This document shows positions 3,034 through 27,540 of a DNA stretch of 64,000 nt, piece after piece; position 1 is the first letter of the stretch; each line of letters opens with the position of its first letter. The stretch is from Alphaproteobacteria bacterium (GTDB lineage: Bacteria > Pseudomonadota > Alphaproteobacteria > MPNO01). The DNA lies in the NCBI GenBank assembly GCA_964291675.2, contig OZ219865.1:320001-384000 (forward strand), written 5' to 3'. The notes below the pieces were generated by a model. The model did not search any database. It had not been told where the DNA came from and worked only from the letters and a program-made list of their open reading frames with translations. Made by a program: the position numbers and the translations under genes.

Positions 3034-4440
3034 TCAGCGGCCGCCGGCGGCGCGGGGCCAGCGCTTGAGCAATCCGCGCGCCGCCGCGATCGACCACAGC
3101 TTTTCGAGGGCGCGGCCGGCGCGGTCCATGATGTCGTCCGCGTCGCCGCGCAGGAACCTCCCGTCCCGCACCAGGATCTCCCCGTCCACCATGACGGCCG
3201 AGACATCGGCGCCCGAGCCGTTCCAGACCAGCGCGCGCAGCGGGTCCCACACCGGAAAGAGATGGGGCCGGCGCATGTCGACGACGATGAGATCGGCCTT
3301 GGCCCCGGGGGCGATGACGCCGAGGTCTTCGCGCCCCAGCGCGGCGGCGCCGCCCGCGGTGGCGGCCGAGATCAGATCGAAGGCCGAGCCGGCGTCGCCG
3401 CGACCGGAATGGGTCTTGGCGAGAAGCCCGGAGGTGCGGAACTCCGACAGCATGTCCAGGCAATAGCCGTCGGTGCCGATGCCGAGCCCGACGCCGCTCG
3501 CGCGGAAGCGATGATAGGGCGCGGTCACCCCGACCCGGGCATAGGTGAGCGGACAGGTGGCCACCGTGGTGCCGGCGTCGCGCAGGATCGCGAGATCGGC
3601 GTCGGTCGCGTAGATGCAGTGCCCGGCCACCACGTCGGGGCCGAGAAAGCCGAGATCGCGGAGGTGCTCGACCGAGGTCTTGCCGTGACGGGCGCGGATG
3701 GTATCGACCTCCAGCGGGCTCTGGGAGACGTGGATCGAAATCGGACAGCCCAGATCGGTGGCGGCGGCGCGCACTTCGCGCAGCAGGTCCGGCGCGCAGG
3801 TGTCCACGCCGTGCGGGGCGAGCCCGACCCGGAGGCGGCCGTCCGGGCCCTCGTCGTAGCGCTGGAACATCTCGATCGCCCGCGCCAGGCCCGTATCGGC
3901 TCCGGTCCCGCCATAGACGGGGCGGCCATCGGCATCGACGCCGGGGCTGGCGGACGACCATTGATAGGGGCAGCCATAGGCGCGAATGCCCATCCGGCGG
4001 GCCACGTCGAAGAAGAAATCCTGGTTGATGCGCCACATGTCGAGGATCGTCGTCGAGCCGGTCATGATCAGCTCGAGGATCGCGATCTCGACGATCGCGC
4101 GCTGCTCGTCCCGGTCCAGCACGTCGACCGCCATCTCGCCCATCGGCAGCAGGAAGCTGTAGACGTAGTTGCCGCCGAGCGTCGCTTCGCTCACGTCTTC
4201 GATGAGCCCGCGGAACACCGGCGCGCTAAAGCTGTGGTTGTGGATGTTGACGAACCCCGGCAGCACCAGGGCCTGAGCGAACCCGATCGCATCGTCGGCG
4301 TCGGCCGGGCGCTCGCCGGTGACCGCCACGATGGTGGAACCCTCCACGACGACGTACCGGTCTTCGACGATCTCGGGCCCGTCATCGGTGCCCGCCAGGA
4401 TCCAGCGCCCGGCAATAACGGTGCGCTTGTCAGGTTTCAT
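3034..4440 (-). CDS. Metal-dependent amidohydrolase (AtzA/TrzA/MTA-deaminase-like)
   Basis: PGFVNIHNH metal motif, IHVSQ, AGHC, GTDG, GAKADLIVVD. Confidence 0.9.
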   Translation of the reverse strand: MKPDKRTVIAGRWILAGTDDGPEIVEDRYVVVEGSTIVAVTGERPADADDAIGFAQALVLPGFVNIHNHSFSAPVFRGLIEDVSEATLGGNYVYSFLLPMGEMAVDVLDRDEQRAIVEIAILELIMTGSTTILDMWRINQDFFFDVARRMGIRAYGCPYQWSSASPGVDADGRPVYGGTGADTGLARAIEMFQRYDEGPDGRLRVGLAPHGVDTCAPDLLREVRAAATDLGCPISIHVSQSPLEVDTIRARHGKTSVEHLRDLGFLGPDVVAGHCIYATDADLAILRDAGTTVATCPLTYARVGVTAPYHRFRASGVGLGIGTDGYCLDMLSEFRTSGLLAKTHSGRGDAGSAFDLISAATAGGAAALGREDLGVIAPGAKADLIVVDMRRPHLFPVWDPLRALVWNGSGADVSAVMVDGEILVRDGRFLRGDADDIMDRAGRALEKLWSIAAARGLLKRWPRAAGGR

Positions 4441-21206: not shown

Positions 21207-21355
21207 CGACGCCTCCCGGTCATGCATCGGTGCGGTTTCCGAGCCGTCGCGGCCCGCCCCGGCATCCTATACGCTCGGCCGGACACATGGGCGGTTCATG
21301 CAGGCCCGCGACCGGGGTGGGCGAACCTGCGCGCCGAAGGGCGACCGCGCCGGCC

Positions 21356-21851
21356 ACCCATGCGGCCTCGCCGCATGCACGGCGACCCGGCGGGAGGGGC
21401 GGTGGCGCCAGTGGGTGCCCGGATCAAGTCCGGGCATGACGGGAGGAGGCATGGCGACGGGGCGGGCCGCACCCGGCTCTCCACGCTCTCTCACCGCCAC
21501 CCCCACCACGTCATGGCTGGCCCCCGGATCACAGTCCGGGGGTGATCCGGCCATCCATGCGGCCTCGCCGCATGCATGGCGGCCGGCAGGGAGGGGCGGT
21601 GGCGCCAGTGGGTGCCGGCCGGCCCCGGCCCCCCCACGTCATGCCCGGCCCCCGGATCAAGTCCGGGGGTGATCCGGGCACCCATGCGGCCTCGCGGCGC
21701 GCACGGCGACCCGGCGGGAGGGGCGGTGGCGCCAGTGGGTGCCCGGATCAAGTCCGGGCATGACGGGAGGGGAGGCATGGCGACCGGGCGGGCCGCGCCC
21801 AGCTTTTCCCATACCGCCAATGGATGCCCGGATCACCCCCGGACTTGATCC
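21356..21851. repeat. REP-like palindrome cluster, left of the IS
   Basis: Several GGATCAAGTCCGGGCATGACG units; a ~90-bp unit repeated at about 21355 and 21680; last REP is cut by the IS. Confidence 0.88.
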
Positions 21852-22028: not shown

Positions 22029-22542
22029 CTATGCGGCCTGCGGCGCCGCCAGCCGGTATCCCCAGGGGGAAACGGCGCGGGCGTGGTCGACCAGCTTGTC
22101 GACCAGAAGCGCGACGAAGAGCTTTCCGTACAGCCAGGCGCGGGCGCTGTCGTCGTCGCGCTTGGGCAGATGGCCGAGCCGGGCGAGCGACTTGAGGCGC
22201 TTGAAGACCAGCTCGACCTGCCAGCGCAGGCGGTACCATTCGAGAACCTCGCTTGCGCTGAAGCGCTGTTCGCAGAACGTGGTAAAGACGATGACGTAAT
22301 CGGCGAAGGCAAGGGTTGCGGGCTTGACCTCGCCGCCCTGGCGCCTGGCCTCGCGGCGCGCCCTCTTGCGCGCCCGCCGGGCGGCCTGGGCCGACTTGCG
22401 CACCGCGCAGACGCGCCCGTGCACCCCGCCCGCCGCCGCCGGCCAGCACCCCACGGCCCCGGCGCGGTCCAGCCCGGACAGCGCCGCAAGCAGATCGAAG
22501 CGCGCCCCGTCCGGGGTCCAGAGCGGCAACGCCCCGGTGTTC
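22029..22542 (-). pseudogene. IS4-family transposase, 3' fragment
   Basis: YREK motif 'YRLRWQVELVFKRLKS'; in frame with 5' fragment once the nested element is removed. Confidence 0.9.
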
Positions 22543-22692
22543 ACCCGTGAGCAGGCGCAGGCTTTCAGCGGGGATTGGGGGCTGATCCGCTTGGATTAAT
22601 CGAGGTTTTGGGGAAGGTGCCCCCCGGCGATCTTGCAAGAAGGCCGCCGGAGGGCTTGTCTCGGTGACAGCTACATCAACTGAGACGCCCCA

Positions 22693-23307
22693 ATGTCGCA
22701 CAAGCTGTTCCGTCACTCCATCCTCTGCAACGCCCGGGTTTGGGACTTTCTGAAGCAGGTCGACGCAGCCGAGGCGGAGGCCTGCCGTGCGGTGGGCTGT
22801 CCTCACTGCGGCGGGACGCTTCACAGCGCGGCCTACCCTCGCAAGCCGTACGGTCTGGCGGCGGATCTTCGGGACGATGTGCGGCGCTTCAGCCTGTGCT
22901 GTTCGGTGTGCAGGCGCCGGGTGCGTCCTGCCTCGGTGCGTTTCTTCGGTCGGAGGTTCTACGTCGGTGCGCTGTTCCTGCTGGTGAGCGCACTGGCGCT
23001 GACCGGCGGGGTGCGGTTGCAGACGATCGCGCGGCGCTGTGGGGTTCCGGTCTCGACGCTGAAGCGCTGGCGTCGCTGGTGGCTGGACGCCTTCCCGGCG
23101 ACCCCGGAGTGGGCGGCGAAGCGGGGCGAGCTGGCGACACCGGCCGGGGAAGCGCCTGTGCGCCGGCTGCTGCGCCTGATGCGGGGCCGGGGCCTGCGGG
23201 CGCGGCTGCTGCGGAGCCTGGTCTGGCTGATGCCGTGGACCGGTTCTTGCGCGCTCGGCGCCGGGCCGGCTTCGCCCGCAGAAAGCGTTTCTGTCATGAA
23301 CGGATAG
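22693..23307 (+). CDS. Hypothetical transposon protein with Cys-rich Zn-ribbon and HTH-like segment
   Basis: CPHCGGTLH, CCSVC, 'TIARRCGVPVSTLKRWRRWW'; first ORF inside the element. Confidence 0.7.
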   Translation: MSHKLFRHSILCNARVWDFLKQVDAAEAEACRAVGCPHCGGTLHSAAYPRKPYGLAADLRDDVRRFSLCCSVCRRRVRPASVRFFGRRFYVGALFLLVSALALTGGVRLQTIARRCGVPVSTLKRWRRWWLDAFPATPEWAAKRGELATPAGEAPVRRLLRLMRGRGLRARLLRSLVWLMPWTGSCALGAGPASPAESVSVMNG

Positions 23308-23356
23308 GGGCTCTTACACCGGCATCTCCCCAACAGGGCGAGGGAGGGATGCCGGG

Positions 23357-24811
23357 ATGGACAGCAACGACGGGAGCGAGCGTCGCGACCGGTGGGCGCG
23401 GCTGCGCTTCGCGGTGGTCGGGCCGCTTCTGGCCTCGCCGCCGCCGAAGGGGAAGCTGCGGGCCGAGCTGGAGCGGCTGGCCGGACGCGAGTGGGAACAT
23501 CCGTCCGGCAAGGGGCCGGTGCGCTTCTCGGCCTCCACGATCGAGCGCTGGTACTACCAGGCGCGGGCGCAGGAGCAGGACCCGGTCAAGGCGCTTCGCC
23601 GAAAGCCACGGGCCGACATCGGCCGCGAACGGGCGATATCGGCGGCACTGATCGAGGTGTTGCGCGATCAGTACCGGGCGCATCCGTCGTGGTCGGCACA
23701 GCTGCACCATGAGAACCTGGCGGCGCTGGTCGCGGCCGATCCGGCGCTCGGCCCGATGCCGTCCTATGCGACGCTCACCCGGGCGATGCGGGCTCGCGGG
23801 CTGGTGCGCAAGCGCCGGCGCAAGTGGCACGAGAGCGAGGCGCGGCCGCCTGTCCAGGCCCGCGAGGTACTGAGCTACGAGGTCACGCGCAGCCACGCCC
23901 TGTGGCACAGCGATATGCATACCGCCAAGTGTCGTGTGCTGACGGCCTCGGGCGAGTGGAAGACGCCGATCCTTCTGGGCTTTCTCGACGACCACTCCCG
24001 GCTCGGCTGCCACCTTCAGTGGTATCTCGCCGAGACCGCAGAGGTCTTCGTCCATGGGCTGTGCCAGGCGTTGATGAAGCGGGGCCTGCCGCGGTCCCTG
24101 CTGACCGACAACGGCTCGGCGATGACCGCCGGCGAGGTCGAGGAAGGGTTGCTCCGGCTCGGCATCGCGGGGGTCACGACGCTCGCGTACAGCCCGCATC
24201 AAAATGGAAAGATCGAGACTTTCTGGGGCACGGTCGAATCACGCCTGATGGCCCAGCTCGAAGGCGTCGACGCGCTCACCCTGAAGATGCTCAACGACGC
24301 CACCGTCGCCTGGCTGGAGCAGGACTATCACCGCCGCGAGCACCGCGAACTCGGCATGTCGCCGCATCGGCGCCTCGCCGGGAGCGTCGACGCATCGCGG
24401 CCCTGCCCCGGCGCGGCCGAGCTCAAGGCGGCCTTCCGCATCACGAGGAAGCGCATGCTCCGGCGCTCGGACGGCACCGTCTCGGTCGAGAACATCCGCT
24501 ACCAGATACCGCCGCCGTGGCGCCACCTGCGCGAGGCCTGGGTCCGCTATGCGCGCTGGGACCTCAGCAGCGTCGATCTGGTCGACGGCCGGGGCGGCGA
24601 ACGGCTGTGCACGCTCTATCCCCTCGACAAGCGCGGCAACGCCGATGGTGTGCGCCGTCCCATCGGCCCCGGCGACGACGATGGCAAGGGCGGCGAGGGG
24701 ACAGGCGGACTGCCGCCGCTGCTCAAGAGCATGCTCGACGCGCAGGCTGCAACCGGCCTGCCGCCGGCATGGCTTGCCTTCGATGACACCCGCGATGATG
24801 GAGAACGCTGA
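23357..24811 (+). CDS. DDE transposase/integrase (rve core, Mu/IS481-like)
   Basis: N-terminal HTH 'SASTIERWY'; D in WHSDM, D in LTDNGS, E in NGKIETF; C-terminal 'DGTVSVENIRYQIP'. Confidence 0.92.
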   Translation: MDSNDGSERRDRWARLRFAVVGPLLASPPPKGKLRAELERLAGREWEHPSGKGPVRFSASTIERWYYQARAQEQDPVKALRRKPRADIGRERAISAALIEVLRDQYRAHPSWSAQLHHENLAALVAADPALGPMPSYATLTRAMRARGLVRKRRRKWHESEARPPVQAREVLSYEVTRSHALWHSDMHTAKCRVLTASGEWKTPILLGFLDDHSRLGCHLQWYLAETAEVFVHGLCQALMKRGLPRSLLTDNGSAMTAGEVEEGLLRLGIAGVTTLAYSPHQNGKIETFWGTVESRLMAQLEGVDALTLKMLNDATVAWLEQDYHRREHRELGMSPHRRLAGSVDASRPCPGAAELKAAFRITRKRMLRRSDGTVSVENIRYQIPPPWRHLREAWVRYARWDLSSVDLVDGRGGERLCTLYPLDKRGNADGVRRPIGPGDDDGKGGEGTGGLPPLLKSMLDAQAATGLPPAWLAFDDTRDDGER

Positions 24812-25644
24812 TGAACCGCGAACACCTCACCCTGTACGGGCTCAAGTGGAACCCGTTCGCCCCTGACCTCCCGGTCGACAGCCTGATGGCGACTGGCGCC
24901 GTCGACAGCTTCTGCCTCAGGATCGAACGCCATCTCGTGCGCCACGGCGGCTTCGCACTGATCGCCGGAGAGCCCGGAACCGGAAAGAGCGTTGCCCTGC
25001 GCCTGCTCGCCCACCGGCTCGGGCGATGCGACGGGCTCAGGGTCGCCGCCATCACCCACCCGTCCTCGAGACTGTCGGACTTCTACCGCGAGATCGGCGA
25101 GCTGTTTGGCGTCGACCTGCTGTACAACAATCGCTGGGCCAGCTTCAAAAACCTGCGCCAGCGCTGGCTCGCGCATCTCGATGACACCCGCATGCGCCCG
25201 GTGTTGCTCATCGACGAGGCCCAGGAACTGCTGCCCTCGGTGTTCTCCGAGATCCGCCTGCTCGCGTCGACCGACTTCGACTCGCGCGCCATCCTCTCCG
25301 TCGTCTTCGCCGGTGACAACCGCCTGCTCGACCGGCTCCGCCAGCCCGACCTGCAGCCCATCGCCTCGCGTATCCGACAGCGTCTGCTGATGACCCGGAC
25401 CGAGGACGCCGACCTGGCCGGCCTGCTCGACCATCTGCTCGAAGAGGCCGGCAATCCGGCGCTGATGACCGCCGGGCTCAGGGACACCCTCGTCACCCAT
25501 GCCGCAGGAAACCCCAGGGCACTCACCGTCATGGCTGATGCCGTGCTCGCAGCCGGTGCCGAGAAGGATCGCGAGGTGCTCGACGAGAAGCTCTTCATCG
25601 AGACCCTCGGCGAGGCACCGCCAGCCAGGCGGGCCCGGCGATGA
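24811..25644 (+). CDS. ExeA-like AAA+ ATPase (MuB/TnsC/IstB-type transposition regulator)
   Basis: 'LYGLKWNPF', Walker A GEPGTGKS, Walker B LLIDEAQ, 'AGNPR'; TGATG overlap with transposase. Confidence 0.88.
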   Translation: MNREHLTLYGLKWNPFAPDLPVDSLMATGAVDSFCLRIERHLVRHGGFALIAGEPGTGKSVALRLLAHRLGRCDGLRVAAITHPSSRLSDFYREIGELFGVDLLYNNRWASFKNLRQRWLAHLDDTRMRPVLLIDEAQELLPSVFSEIRLLASTDFDSRAILSVVFAGDNRLLDRLRQPDLQPIASRIRQRLLMTRTEDADLAGLLDHLLEEAGNPALMTAGLRDTLVTHAAGNPRALTVMADAVLAAGAEKDREVLDEKLFIETLGEAPPARRARR

Positions 25645-26630
25645 CCGGCTTCCCGACACGGCCACCGGCCGAACTCGAGGAGCGGCCGCGGGAGCGGCAG
25701 TGGCTGGTCGATGCCCTGTGGAGCGAACAGGGGGTCGGCATCGTCGGCGGCGAGCCCAAGTGCGGCAAGTCCTTCCTCGCGCTGGACCTCGCCGTCGCGG
25801 TGGCTGCAGGAGTGCCCTGCCTGCGCCACTTCCGCCCCGCGGCAAGCGGCACCGTGTTGCTCTTCGCCGCCGAGGACGCCGGTCACATCGTGCGCGACCG
25901 CCTCAAGGGCATCGCCCGGGCCGCCGGCGCCGACTTCGAGGCCCTCGACATCGCCGTCATCGACGTGCCCACGCTCCGCCTCGATCATCGCCTCGACCGG
26001 CAGCGGCTGCTGGAGACCGTCGAACGGATCGGACCGCGCCTCCTCGTCCTCGATCCCCTGGTCCGCCTGCATGGCGTCGACGAGAACGCGGTTGCGGAAG
26101 TCGCTCCCATCCTCGGCTTCCTGCGCGACCTGCAGCGCCGCTTCGGGACCGCTGTGCTGCTCGTCCACCACGCTCGCAAGAGTGGCGCCAGCCGCCCCGG
26201 CCAGGCGCTGCGCGGCAGCAGCGAGCTGCATGCCTGGGGCGACAGCAATCTCTACCTGCGCCGGCGCGACGGGCAGATCGTCATGACCGCCGAGCATCGC
26301 GCCGCACCCGGCCTCAACAATATCGAGATCGAGCTTGCCGATGACGGCGAAGGACCAGCGCTGCAGCTCCGGCGGACAGGACCTCACCAGGCTCCGCCGC
26401 AGCCGGACAGCGCCGAACAGCGGATCGCCCAGGTGCTCGCGACAGCCGAATCCCCACTCGTGCAGTCCGAGATCCGAAAACGCGCCGGGGTACGCAACGC
26501 GACTGTCTCCGCGGCACTGCACGGGCTTGTGCGCGAGGGACGGGTCGAGCGCGGGACGGGAGGTCGCTACCGCTTCCTCGGAACCGCGGCGAACCAAGCC
26601 GACAACCCGACGGACAGCCACAACCCGTAG
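25641..26630 (+). CDS. RepA-like (AAA_25, RecA-superfamily) helicase with C-terminal winged HTH
   Basis: GGEPKCGKS, 'LLFAAED', 'LLVLDPL', 'LLVHHARK', 'LRGSSELHAWGD'; tail 'QSEIRKRAGVRNATVSAALHGLVREGRV'; ATGA overlap. Confidence 0.85.
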   Translation: MTGFPTRPPAELEERPRERQWLVDALWSEQGVGIVGGEPKCGKSFLALDLAVAVAAGVPCLRHFRPAASGTVLLFAAEDAGHIVRDRLKGIARAAGADFEALDIAVIDVPTLRLDHRLDRQRLLETVERIGPRLLVLDPLVRLHGVDENAVAEVAPILGFLRDLQRRFGTAVLLVHHARKSGASRPGQALRGSSELHAWGDSNLYLRRRDGQIVMTAEHRAAPGLNNIEIELADDGEGPALQLRRTGPHQAPPQPDSAEQRIAQVLATAESPLVQSEIRKRAGVRNATVSAALHGLVREGRVERGTGGRYRFLGTAANQADNPTDSHNP

Positions 26631-26645
26631 GCGAAGCAGCCCCTC

Positions 26646-26699
26646 TTCCCGTTCCCGTTCCGGCGAACCCTTAAGCGTTGCAGGGAACGGGAACGGGAA
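26646..26699. repeat. Perfect 16-bp inverted repeat built from GGGAAC hexamers (iteron-like)
   Basis: TTCCCGTTCCCGTTCC (26646-26661) - 22 nt - GGAACGGGAACGGGAA (26684-26699). Confidence 0.85.
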
Positions 26700-26956
26700 C
26701 ACCAGCGCACAATGCCCCACGAAACTGCCTGAAGCGATCGGCCAATGGCCGAAAGCTCTGCTTACGGCCATGGCAGCCCTCTGGCGCGGGGACGGCGGCG
26801 GGTCACCCGAAGGGCCGTAGCGGAGCGAAGGAGCCGCGAAGCGGCTTGAAGCGCCGACGGCCTCGCGACACTCCCCGCCCGGCCTTCCTGCAAACGGCAG
26901 ACGATCCCCATCGAATAACGCGAAATCCGCACCATCAAACAACGTGCGCGCGCTCA

Positions 26957-27540
26957 ACCCGCACCGCGATGCGACCGCCCGCCGCCGCCACATGGCCAAT
27001 CCCGGCCGCCGTCGCATACCCCCGGTCGGCCAGGATGTGGTCGCCCGCGCGCACCGGAAACCGCGCCAGATACTCCGCGCTGCCCGCCCCGCGCGTCGGC
27101 GTCACCGCGAAGTAATCGCAGCGCAGCGAGGACAGGCACAGGCTGTAATGCACCCGCCACACAGAGCCCGTCCGCCCCGGCTCGCGCACCGTGGTGGCGT
27201 CGAACGCGCGCACCCGCAAGCCCGAACCCGGTCGCGAACCCGGCGGGCGCGCCAGGCCGCGCTCGCGAAACAGCGCAACGCACAGCCCGTGCAGCCAGTC
27301 CGACGATTTGCGAAGCCGCTTGAGCAGCGCAACGTCCGACAGATCCGCCAGACCCGCCTGGCGCGCCCGAACCGCCGTCTCGCGCAGCGAATGCCCGCAG
27401 CCCAGATGCAGCAGCAGAACCCGCAGCGCCGCCTGTGCCGACTTGTCCTTGCGCAGACCCTTCAACGCCCCGCTGGAACGGCCCAAATCCTCCCAGCCGG
27501 CCGGCAGAAACGACCGCAGAACCGCCCAGTCCTCGTCCAT
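26957..27540 (-). pseudogene. IS4-family transposase, 5' fragment
   Basis: 'SLRETA', 'LSDVALLKRL', 'FDATTV', 'ILADRGYA' catalytic Asp motifs; cut at ...AVR|V. Confidence 0.9.

Follow-up and report, generated by a model that had tools for sequence, protein, structure and literature searches.

The 64-kb stretch of DNA analysed here (the window; all coordinates below refer to it unless another locus is given) carries a transposon of 4,409 bp at 22548–26956 on the plus strand. In this element the three genes of a Tn6049-family backbone are followed by a gene for a RepA-like helicase and by a palindromic array of short repeats. That it is an active, compact, Mu-like transposon and a member of the Tn6049 family is well supported. 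The backbone is already known, and the helicase module in the fourth slot is new to it. We put the chance at about even that the helicase and its repeats form a Rep/ori-like replication module, accessory to strand transfer, rather than a target selector.

Four copies of the transposon, 100% identical, are present in the window's genome. The match of every copy spans base 1 to base 4,409 and identity ends precisely there, and the flanks of the four copies are unrelated to one another. Comparison of these flanks shows exact 5-bp target duplications at three copies (ACCCG in the window, at 22543–22547 and 26957–26961; CCGGA and CCGGT at two others) and a 4-bp duplication (CTGT) at the fourth. The window copy interrupts a host IS4-family transposase gene on the minus strand. 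The N-terminal part of this gene is at 26957–27540 (NCBIfam IS4, NF033592, 7.9e-18) and the C-terminal part at 22029–22547 (NF033592, 1.7e-21; DDE_Tnp_1, 3.3e-13). When the element and one ACCCG were deleted in silico, an open IS4 frame of 365 amino acids starting with MDEDWAVL was restored. An earlier reading of the letters without database searches (the sequence-only reading) had claimed the exact ends, the restored frame, the TG/CA termini with imperfect inverted repeats and the 5-bp duplication, and all of these were borne out.

The termini are TGAGC...GCTCA, and the terminus TGAGCG is conserved across the 9 lineages of the end alignment. Between the left terminal inverted repeat (22548–22567, plus strand, TGAGCAGGCGCAGG...) and the right one (26937–26956, minus strand, ...GCGCGCTCA) 13 of the 20 outermost bases agree. 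The subterminal inverted motif seen in the sequence-only reading is also present: TTGCAAGAAGGCCG at 22633–22646 (plus strand) matches 26880–26893 (minus strand) at 13 of 14 positions, which was attained by 3 of 200 shuffles. In alignments of the left and right ends of relatives, including the right ends of other lineages, only the left partner is kept. In the left-end alignment a CTTGCAAGAAG block is conserved before the first open reading frame (ORF1), together with a GTCTC..GAGAC inverted repeat, and the left motif may be a promoter or operator region ahead of ORF1. At the right end two YGATGG repeats (26908–26937, minus strand; 20–25 and 44–49 from the tip) form conserved columns in the alignment of 9 lineages and are candidate transposase-binding sites. 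Both scans for sigma-70 consensus promoters and terminators called none in the element. At 22687, just before the start of ORF1, the contigs of two public runs have an extra C afterwards, at about half of the summed depth, which is a variant among copies or strains.

Target duplications were surveyed in 60 copies with both ends located, from 10 genomes. Their length is 5 bp in 34 copies, 4 bp in 18, 6 bp in 1 and 3 bp in 1, and 6 copies have none. The 5-bp duplications have C at position 2 in 24 of 34 and G at position 4 in 20 of 34, a weak N-C-N-G-N preference. Phage Mu prefers N-Y-S-R-N pentamers as targets, and the bias seen here resembles that preference. The search for insertion-site bias that the sequence-only reading had proposed thus gave a weak preference within the duplications only, with no shared flanks.

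The four ORFs are co-oriented on the plus strand, and the last three are translationally coupled through the overlaps TGATG (transposase and ATPase genes) and ATGA (ATPase and helicase genes). This layout, as well as the domains, is as the sequence-only reading had described it. ORF1 (22693–23307, 204 amino acids) has a Cys-rich N-terminus (CxxC...CxxC) and a helix-turn-helix (HTH) match (HTH_23, 2.5e-6), and we infer that this Zn-ribbon/HTH protein is a DNA-binding regulator or an end- or target-binding subunit. As a lead only, DUF6431/HTH clusters are found among its language-model neighbours. The second gene (23357–24811) encodes a Mu/IS481-like DDE transposase of 484 amino acids with rve and HTH_32 domains. 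The third (24811–25644) encodes a 277-amino-acid AAA+ ATPase (AAA_22, 2.4e-21, 76.8 bits), a MuB-type transposase partner whose Walker A and B motifs are invariant and which is called "GspA/ExeA-like" in the Tn6049 literature. It is well supported that the rve transposase and the MuB-type AAA_22 ATPase cut at the TG..CA ends and join with a mostly 5-bp stagger.

To place the backbone, we compared it with plasmid records. In a translated search of PLSDB plasmids the transposase matched 572 records, none of which reached 60% identity; the top 21, at 49–52%, were mostly from Cupriavidus metallidurans. The region in pMOL30 encodes, in order, a 181-amino-acid "transposase", a 479-amino-acid "IS481 family transposase", a 277-amino-acid "AAA family ATPase" and a 71-amino-acid hypothetical protein, and these four ORFs are likewise present on a Paraburkholderia plasmid. 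ORF1 is a homologue of the 181-amino-acid ORF, with 37–42% identity to the Tn6049-type ORF. Identity to the pMOL30 Tn6049 is 40% for ORF1, 50–52% for the transposase and 52% for the ATPase, with the same order and strand. By these protein comparisons, the three-gene backbone belongs to the named Tn6049 family.

Tn6049 is found in Cupriavidus metallidurans CH34 and also on the Pseudomonas plasmid pHS87a. The available part of PMC2864759 describes it as a 3.5-kb element with 12 copies in strain CH34 and an ATPase gene provisionally named gspA, often associated with genomic islands. The available part of PMC4739549 gives it 12-bp imperfect inverted repeats starting with TG and 4-bp direct repeats. 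The first three genes of the two elements are homologous and in the same order. From what these two sources give, the two elements also share TG..CA termini, short imperfect inverted repeats and 4–5-bp duplications (PMC4739549), and both are multicopy and often lie within other mobile DNA (PMC2864759). In the slot after the ATPase gene, however, Tn6049 has the 71-amino-acid ORF, whereas the element of the window has a 329-amino-acid AAA_25 protein. Tn6049 also lacks the GGGAAC array module, and its 3.5 kb compare with 4,409 bp here. The 71-amino-acid ORF was considered as a relic of the helicase winged helix and ruled out, as there is no similarity. A literature search found no mechanistic study of Tn6049, only descriptive mentions.

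The transposase scored 114 bits against NCBIfam IS481, below the cut-off of 224, although this was its best curated family. PGAP labels the Tn6049 protein "IS481 family transposase", but the IS481 family consists of single-gene insertion sequences, unlike the four-gene element here. Against NCBIfam IS21 the score was 40 bits with a cut-off of 160, and IstB_IS21 was not among the Pfam hits of the ATPase. There was no Pfam match to TniQ or TnsA in any ORF (E≤0.01), and the TniB score of 16.5 bits was under the cut-off of 22.4. Because no ORF matched TniQ, TnsA or IstB, the element is neither strictly Tn7-like nor IS21. Among PHROG families, the transposase matched phrog_310 "transposase" (2.3e-38) and the ATPase phrog_296 "DNA transposition protein" (2.6e-20), which would correspond to Mu A and Mu B. 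As in the Mu/Tn7/Tn5053/Tn552 group, an rve transposase is encoded with an AAA+ ATPase just downstream, and the TG..CA ends, the 5-bp duplications and the matches to phage transposition families are shared with phage Mu A/B; unlike Mu, it is a 4.4-kb element rather than a phage, and no TnsA, TniQ or resolvase match was found in any ORF. The sequence-only reading had assigned the element to a Mu/Tn7/IS21 design; the ends, the stagger and the PHROG matches agree with the Mu part of this. The rve domain was found in 22/22 close transposase homologues, and Mu-transpos_C in 2 of the 22, weakly (best E 0.0016). A transposase profile matched only retroviral integrase cores in the PDB (~1e-5).

The fourth gene (25641–26630) encodes a protein of 329 amino acids with a RepA/DnaB-fold ATPase (~9–245) and a C-terminal winged helix (~255–312). 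Pfam AAA_25 matched with 1.1e-37 and 130 bits (cut-off 27), with weak winged-helix matches at residues 257–312. A profile of 65 homologues found RSF1010 RepA (1g8y) at 8.9e-18, then DnaB and RadA, and its residues 255–315 weakly resemble small winged-helix domains. The AlphaFold model has a mean predicted local distance difference test score (pLDDT) of 90.7. Its top Foldseek match is again 1g8y, with a template-modelling score (TM) of 0.75 normalised to the target; DnaB, RadA, KaiC and Rad51 come next. Residues K43, E78, D138, R142, E148 and R191 are invariant in the 65 homologues, and there is little variation in the HHARK and LRGSS blocks. Because these catalytic-type residues are invariant, the protein is expected to be an active NTPase. 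Domain, fold and motifs place it among the RepA/DnaB-type ring helicases (AAA_25), with a predicted hexamer and predicted unwinding. "RepA-like helicase with a winged helix", as the sequence-only reading had it, is a fair description of the fourth protein. In a tblastn search of 72,556 PLSDB plasmids the helicase had no match.

We then asked how the helicase is distributed, using 80 loci from 20 genomes fetched by transposase profile. The gene, whole or interrupted, lies directly after the ATPase gene in 77/80 loci and in 18/20 genomes, which is the gene order that the sequence-only reading had proposed to look for in other genomes. The three loci without it are a truncated copy (L080) and the two most distant ones (L089 and L090, transposase 52–54% identical), which are Tn6049-like. 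Homologous transposase/ATPase pairs that mostly lack the helicase had been named beforehand as evidence for incidental cargo, and such pairs are the rule only in the cultured Tn6049 branch. In close pairs dN/dS, the ratio of nonsynonymous to synonymous substitution rates, is 0.13–0.45 for the helicase, 0.21–0.33 for the transposase and 0.15–0.56 for the ATPase. These ratios point to purifying selection on the helicase gene like that on the core genes. As many as 18 of the 80 returned loci come from a single genome, so some genomes hold many copies, and the transposase and the helicase were each found in >7,800 protein clusters.

A second type of element, present at two loci, has a helicase 71–73% identical to that of the window in the same slot, whereas its transposase is only 27% and its AAA_22 ATPase only 25% identical. 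It is 4,385–4,386 bp long with ends TGTTG..CAACA and a TCTGG duplication, and its transposase has a Pfam Mu-transpos_C domain (2.5e-7). One of the two lies inside the ORF1 gene of a first-type copy (L033:2219-6603). Its own first ORF was tried as a homologue of the window ORF1 and ruled out, since there is no similarity. A third lineage has helicases 40–44% identical to that of the window. Among 401 genomes of the phylum, 35 have some AAA_25 match. Besides the window's genome, 3 of the 401 carry a helicase relative at 42–43%, and all three are transposase-ATPase-helicase units of the second kind. At 26 loci of more distant AAA_25 matches there was neither a transposase nor an AAA_22 gene within ~1.5 kb. 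An AAA_22 profile search of the 401 genomes had matches in 228, mostly housekeeping ExeA/GspA-like genes, and transposon-type matches only in G000, G364, G050, G158, G166 and G222.

Metagenome contigs were fetched with a representative 38% identical to the window helicase. Sixteen were returned, of which 12 have at least 280 bp upstream of the gene and the other four start too near it. In each of the 12 informative contigs a gene for a Mu-like transposase, for an AAA_22 ATPase or for both accompanies the helicase gene on its strand. Ten have the ATPase gene as its direct upstream neighbour, and two (L157 and L162) as its direct downstream neighbour. In these two the AAA_22 gene (L157:4230-4991, L162:3654-4415) comes after the helicase gene and the GGGAAC repeats, and the order of the trio is not fixed. 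The helicase subfamily thus goes with Mu-like transposase/ATPase pairs even where these have diverged deeply. The helicase belongs to the element and does not look like variable or random cargo; the sequence-only reading had made it a part of the element, and the 18/20 genomes, the other Mu-like lineages and the purifying selection all agree with this. The module probably did not come with the Tn6049 backbone. Most likely the window's Tn6049-type backbone acquired its helicase from another lineage.

Several further observations were made on the relatives. Divergence is unequal between genes of one element: L011 and L014 are 92% identical in the transposase and only 65% in the helicase, and L023 and L029 are 89% identical in the transposase, 66% in the ATPase and 88% in the helicase. 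Together with L039/L043, these pairs indicate frequent recombination of co-resident elements. Family members insert into each other, and the window copy sits in an IS4 transposase gene. The flanks of L070 (5827–6159 and 14239–14712) show a first-type copy inside a Toprim gene, which is split at residue ~178. The bins of some close relatives (L011, L036, L067, L069, L089 and L090) are labelled Chloroflexota, Actinomycetota, Acidobacteriota, Gammaproteobacteria and Myxococcota, besides Alphaproteobacteria; either the element has spread widely by horizontal transfer, or short contigs rich in repeats were binned wrongly. The window's genome has a second relative of the element, 77% identical and cut by a contig start (G000:C1:13-2889, L005); it has ORF1, a transposase whose frame seems broken, and residues 1–200 of the ATPase. 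An isolated left-end fragment in the same genome (G000:C2:3241689-3241842, L006) is 73% identical.

Two features of the relatives bear on what the helicase does. The first is a fifth gene after the helicase gene in variants of 5.2 kb, encoding 289 amino acids with DUF3991 (8.2e-9) and Toprim_2 (4.8e-10) matches. This DUF3991-Toprim gene is present in 21 fetched loci of at least 10 genomes, 49–100% identical to the L029 copy. In a transposase tree the window's lineage, L011 and L014 are nested in a well-supported clade of 8 rows, the other five members of which bear the Toprim gene, and Toprim-bearing elements fall into three separate supported clades. The backbone of this tree is unresolved and its outgroup branch very long; it is used only for the 8-row clade and does not tell whether the elements with a helicase are a single clade separate from Tn6049. 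Because the window's lineage is nested among Toprim-bearing lineages, it has most likely lost the gene.

The second feature is the repeat site. An inverted-repeat scan found a palindrome of iteron-like hexamers at 26646–26699, 16 bases past the helicase stop, with three TTCCCG and three GGGAAC units round a 22-base spacer, which is a candidate ori-like site. Within the window's genome the triple GGGAAC unit occurs only in the four element copies. Most lineages keep the motif after the helicase gene, as the same palindrome, a single arm (GGGTAACGGTAACGGGTAAC) or heptamers, and it is retained at 40–50% helicase identity, for example as TGTTCCCGTGTTCCC...GGAACACGGGAACA. Strict tandem units are present in 21 of 32 downstream 100-base windows and in 4 of 3,483 windows elsewhere in these loci. 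The winged-helix residue after a conserved Arg follows the type of repeat: it is N with GGGAAC or GGGAACC in 9/9, P or T with GGTAAC in 6/6, A with GGAAAC in 1, and K with GGGAACAC in 5/5. This partition is suggestive, though confounded by shared descent. No T-run terminator was called at the repeat site. Because the sequence itself is conserved and the single-arm forms are unable to form a hairpin, we read the site as a candidate protein-binding site rather than a terminator.

On the strength of the primase-like Toprim gene in sister lineages and the conserved repeat site after the helicase gene, we favour the replication reading. The winged helix would bind the GGGAAC arrays, and the ATPase domain would assemble there as a ring helicase and open the DNA. 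DNA synthesis would then begin on the element; elements that have a Toprim protein would use it for priming, and the rest would use the host primase. The substrate of such replication could be a fork-like transposition intermediate, an excised circle or the element where it stands, and each of these would give more donor copies. The sequence-only reading had left the role between self-replication and target selection; the first gains from the Toprim gene and the conserved repeats, and the second gains nothing.

In sequence, the extra module is nearest to RepA of the IncQ plasmids. RSF1010 has a trio of RepA helicase, RepB' primase and iteron-binding initiator RepC. RepA is the best solved match of our helicase both by profile and by fold, and a helicase, a primase-like gene and short repeats are likewise combined. 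In contrast to RSF1010, the sequence identity is ~20%, the helicase carries the DNA-binding domain itself, as a fusion, instead of relying on a separate initiator, the primase-like protein is DUF3991-Toprim, and the module is housed in a DDE transposon. In design, the closest counterparts seem to be the initiator-helicase/origin units of satellites and viruses, such as the pri-rep-ori of SaPI (staphylococcal pathogenicity islands), the alpha protein of P4 and the T antigen of SV40 with its inverted pentamers, which use superfamily 3 (SF3) helicases. These share with our module a helicase with a sequence-specific DNA-binding domain, short inverted repeat sets beside the helicase gene and, in some cases, a primase gene. 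The resemblance is one of design, not of membership. Satellite and small-virus elements integrate by tyrosine or serine recombinases, not by DDE transposases. Self-synthesising transposons (casposons and the eukaryotic Polintons) resemble the element in carrying their own replication protein, as stated in the available part of PMC4779613. They have a DNA polymerase with Cas1 or retroviral-type integrases, whereas the family described here encodes no polymerase but a helicase, to which some members add a primase-like protein.

Several results weigh against the replication reading or the evidence for it. The 7-Mb genome G401 holds ~8 copies, all with the helicase split at residues ~156–163 by an element with three tyrosine recombinases, and no intact helicase homologue was found in this genome at E≤1e-8. 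Three of these composites occupy separate sites, each flanked by its own duplication (GCGGC, GCCTT and GCCC). Unless the recombinase element invaded every copy independently, the transposon has thus spread with no intact helicase gene in cis. Tn6049, without the helicase gene, still reached 12 copies in one strain, as given in the available part of PMC2864759. Because of the disrupted G401 copies and the success of Tn6049 without the gene, we regard the helicase as an accessory and not as part of strand transfer. The core role that the sequence-only reading gave it is thus kept in so far as the gene is fixed in its slot, and it fails in so far as the gene is not essential in cis. The lineages in the repeat counts are relatives, so that both the enrichment and the residue/repeat partition overstate independence, and the repeats could alternatively serve as an operator or form a hairpin that lacks a T-run. 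The public data on the stretch, assembled contigs of three runs and one raw read of a fourth, showed no circle joints, and the repeat in the IS4 flank makes depth uninformative. The transposase AlphaFold model is poor overall (pLDDT 55.7), with a beta-rich stretch at 362–420, and its fold could not be placed.

Interruption of the helicase near the same codon (~152–163) was observed in three genomes: in G401 (L070, L071, L072, L078 and L087), in L060 and in L024. The interrupting sequence is the three-recombinase element in every G401 copy, with its interior inverted in one, and an IS66-type element in L060; in L024 the match is truncated there. The shared codon may be an insertion hot spot or a coincidence.

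Among the other explanations, we think it improbable that the helicase is a target selector or adaptor which fills the TniQ/TnsD/TnsE slot and steers the ATPase or transposase to forks, single-stranded DNA gaps or a sequence read by its winged helix. Its gene does lie directly after that of the AAA+ ATPase and is coupled to it, the slot is conserved across divergent lineages, and the winged helix is predicted to bind DNA. Insertion sites, however, are diverse, with only the weak N-C-N-G-N bias and no common flank sequence, and the GGGAAC motif is inside the element and not at its targets. A specific adaptor contact is hard to fit with helicases 71–73% identical that serve ATPases only 25% identical. 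The primase-like gene travels along, and copies without an intact helicase gene have inserted with normal duplications.

Of similarly low probability, in our judgement, is a regulator, immunity or maintenance factor that binds the internal GGGAAC arrays as a "self" mark, a control or a stabiliser, without DNA synthesis. Such a factor would suit a gene and a repeat site that move as a unit, and a gene dispensable for insertion. But the ring-helicase ATPase motifs are invariant, which would be superfluous for a mere binder, the site is at the 3' end of the operon and not at a promoter, and the Toprim partner has no obvious regulatory role. Passenger cargo with a host-directed role apart from the element's life cycle, for example anti-phage defence, is very unlikely, although the nearest named relatives lack the helicase, disruption of the gene is compatible with spread and Toprim-plus-helicase pairs occur in defence systems (available part of PMC8649781): cargo is usually variable, yet the helicase is fixed in position over several transposase lineages, its 42–43% relatives among the 401 genomes are all in transposase-ATPase-helicase units, with only the 26 distant AAA_25 loci lying apart from such genes, and PADLOC matched no defence family to the helicase and gave only short partial matches for the ATPase and the Toprim protein, the latter without a passing stretch.

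Beside the interrupted IS4 gene, at 21350–21850, is a cluster of imperfect direct and inverted repeats of ~100–130 bases. A 97-base unit is repeated three times at 73–100% identity, and there are inverted repeats of 26–32 bases with 96–97% complementarity. These intergenic repeats look like repetitive extragenic palindromic (REP) sequences or miniature inverted-repeat transposable elements (MITEs).

In the literature we found no account of compact Mu-like DDE transposons, Tn6049-like or other, that carry an AAA_25/RepA-like gene; ISfinder, TnCentral and supplements were beyond the scope of the search and may hold one. Where the sequence-only reading knew of no characterised element with this organisation, the backbone proved to be that of a named family, and the helicase module is the part for which no published description was found. 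Tentatively, and with somewhat less than even confidence, we propose that the element represents an undescribed, widespread class of compact Mu-like DDE transposons with a portable mini-replicon (an initiator-helicase, a repeat origin and sometimes a primase), a module exchanged between lineages ~25% identical in their transposition proteins. The family has escaped description because most of its members are from uncultured bacteria.

Replication of Mu depends on the host restart primosome, whereas this family carries its own helicase and sometimes a primase-like protein. If the replication reading is true, an insertion element of 4–5 kb could start its own replication, as an excised circle or in place. 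This would blur the boundary between transposon and plasmid and would free replicative spread from the host restart machinery. How replicative and copy-out transposons recruit the replisome is poorly understood, according to the available part of a preprint on Tn4430 (10.64898/2026.05.30.728999). A family that brings its helicase, a candidate loading site and, in some members, a primase-like protein would open this question to direct tests in a very small system of four or five genes with defined ends. Transfer of the module between unrelated transposase lineages is a clear case of modular evolution of mobile elements.

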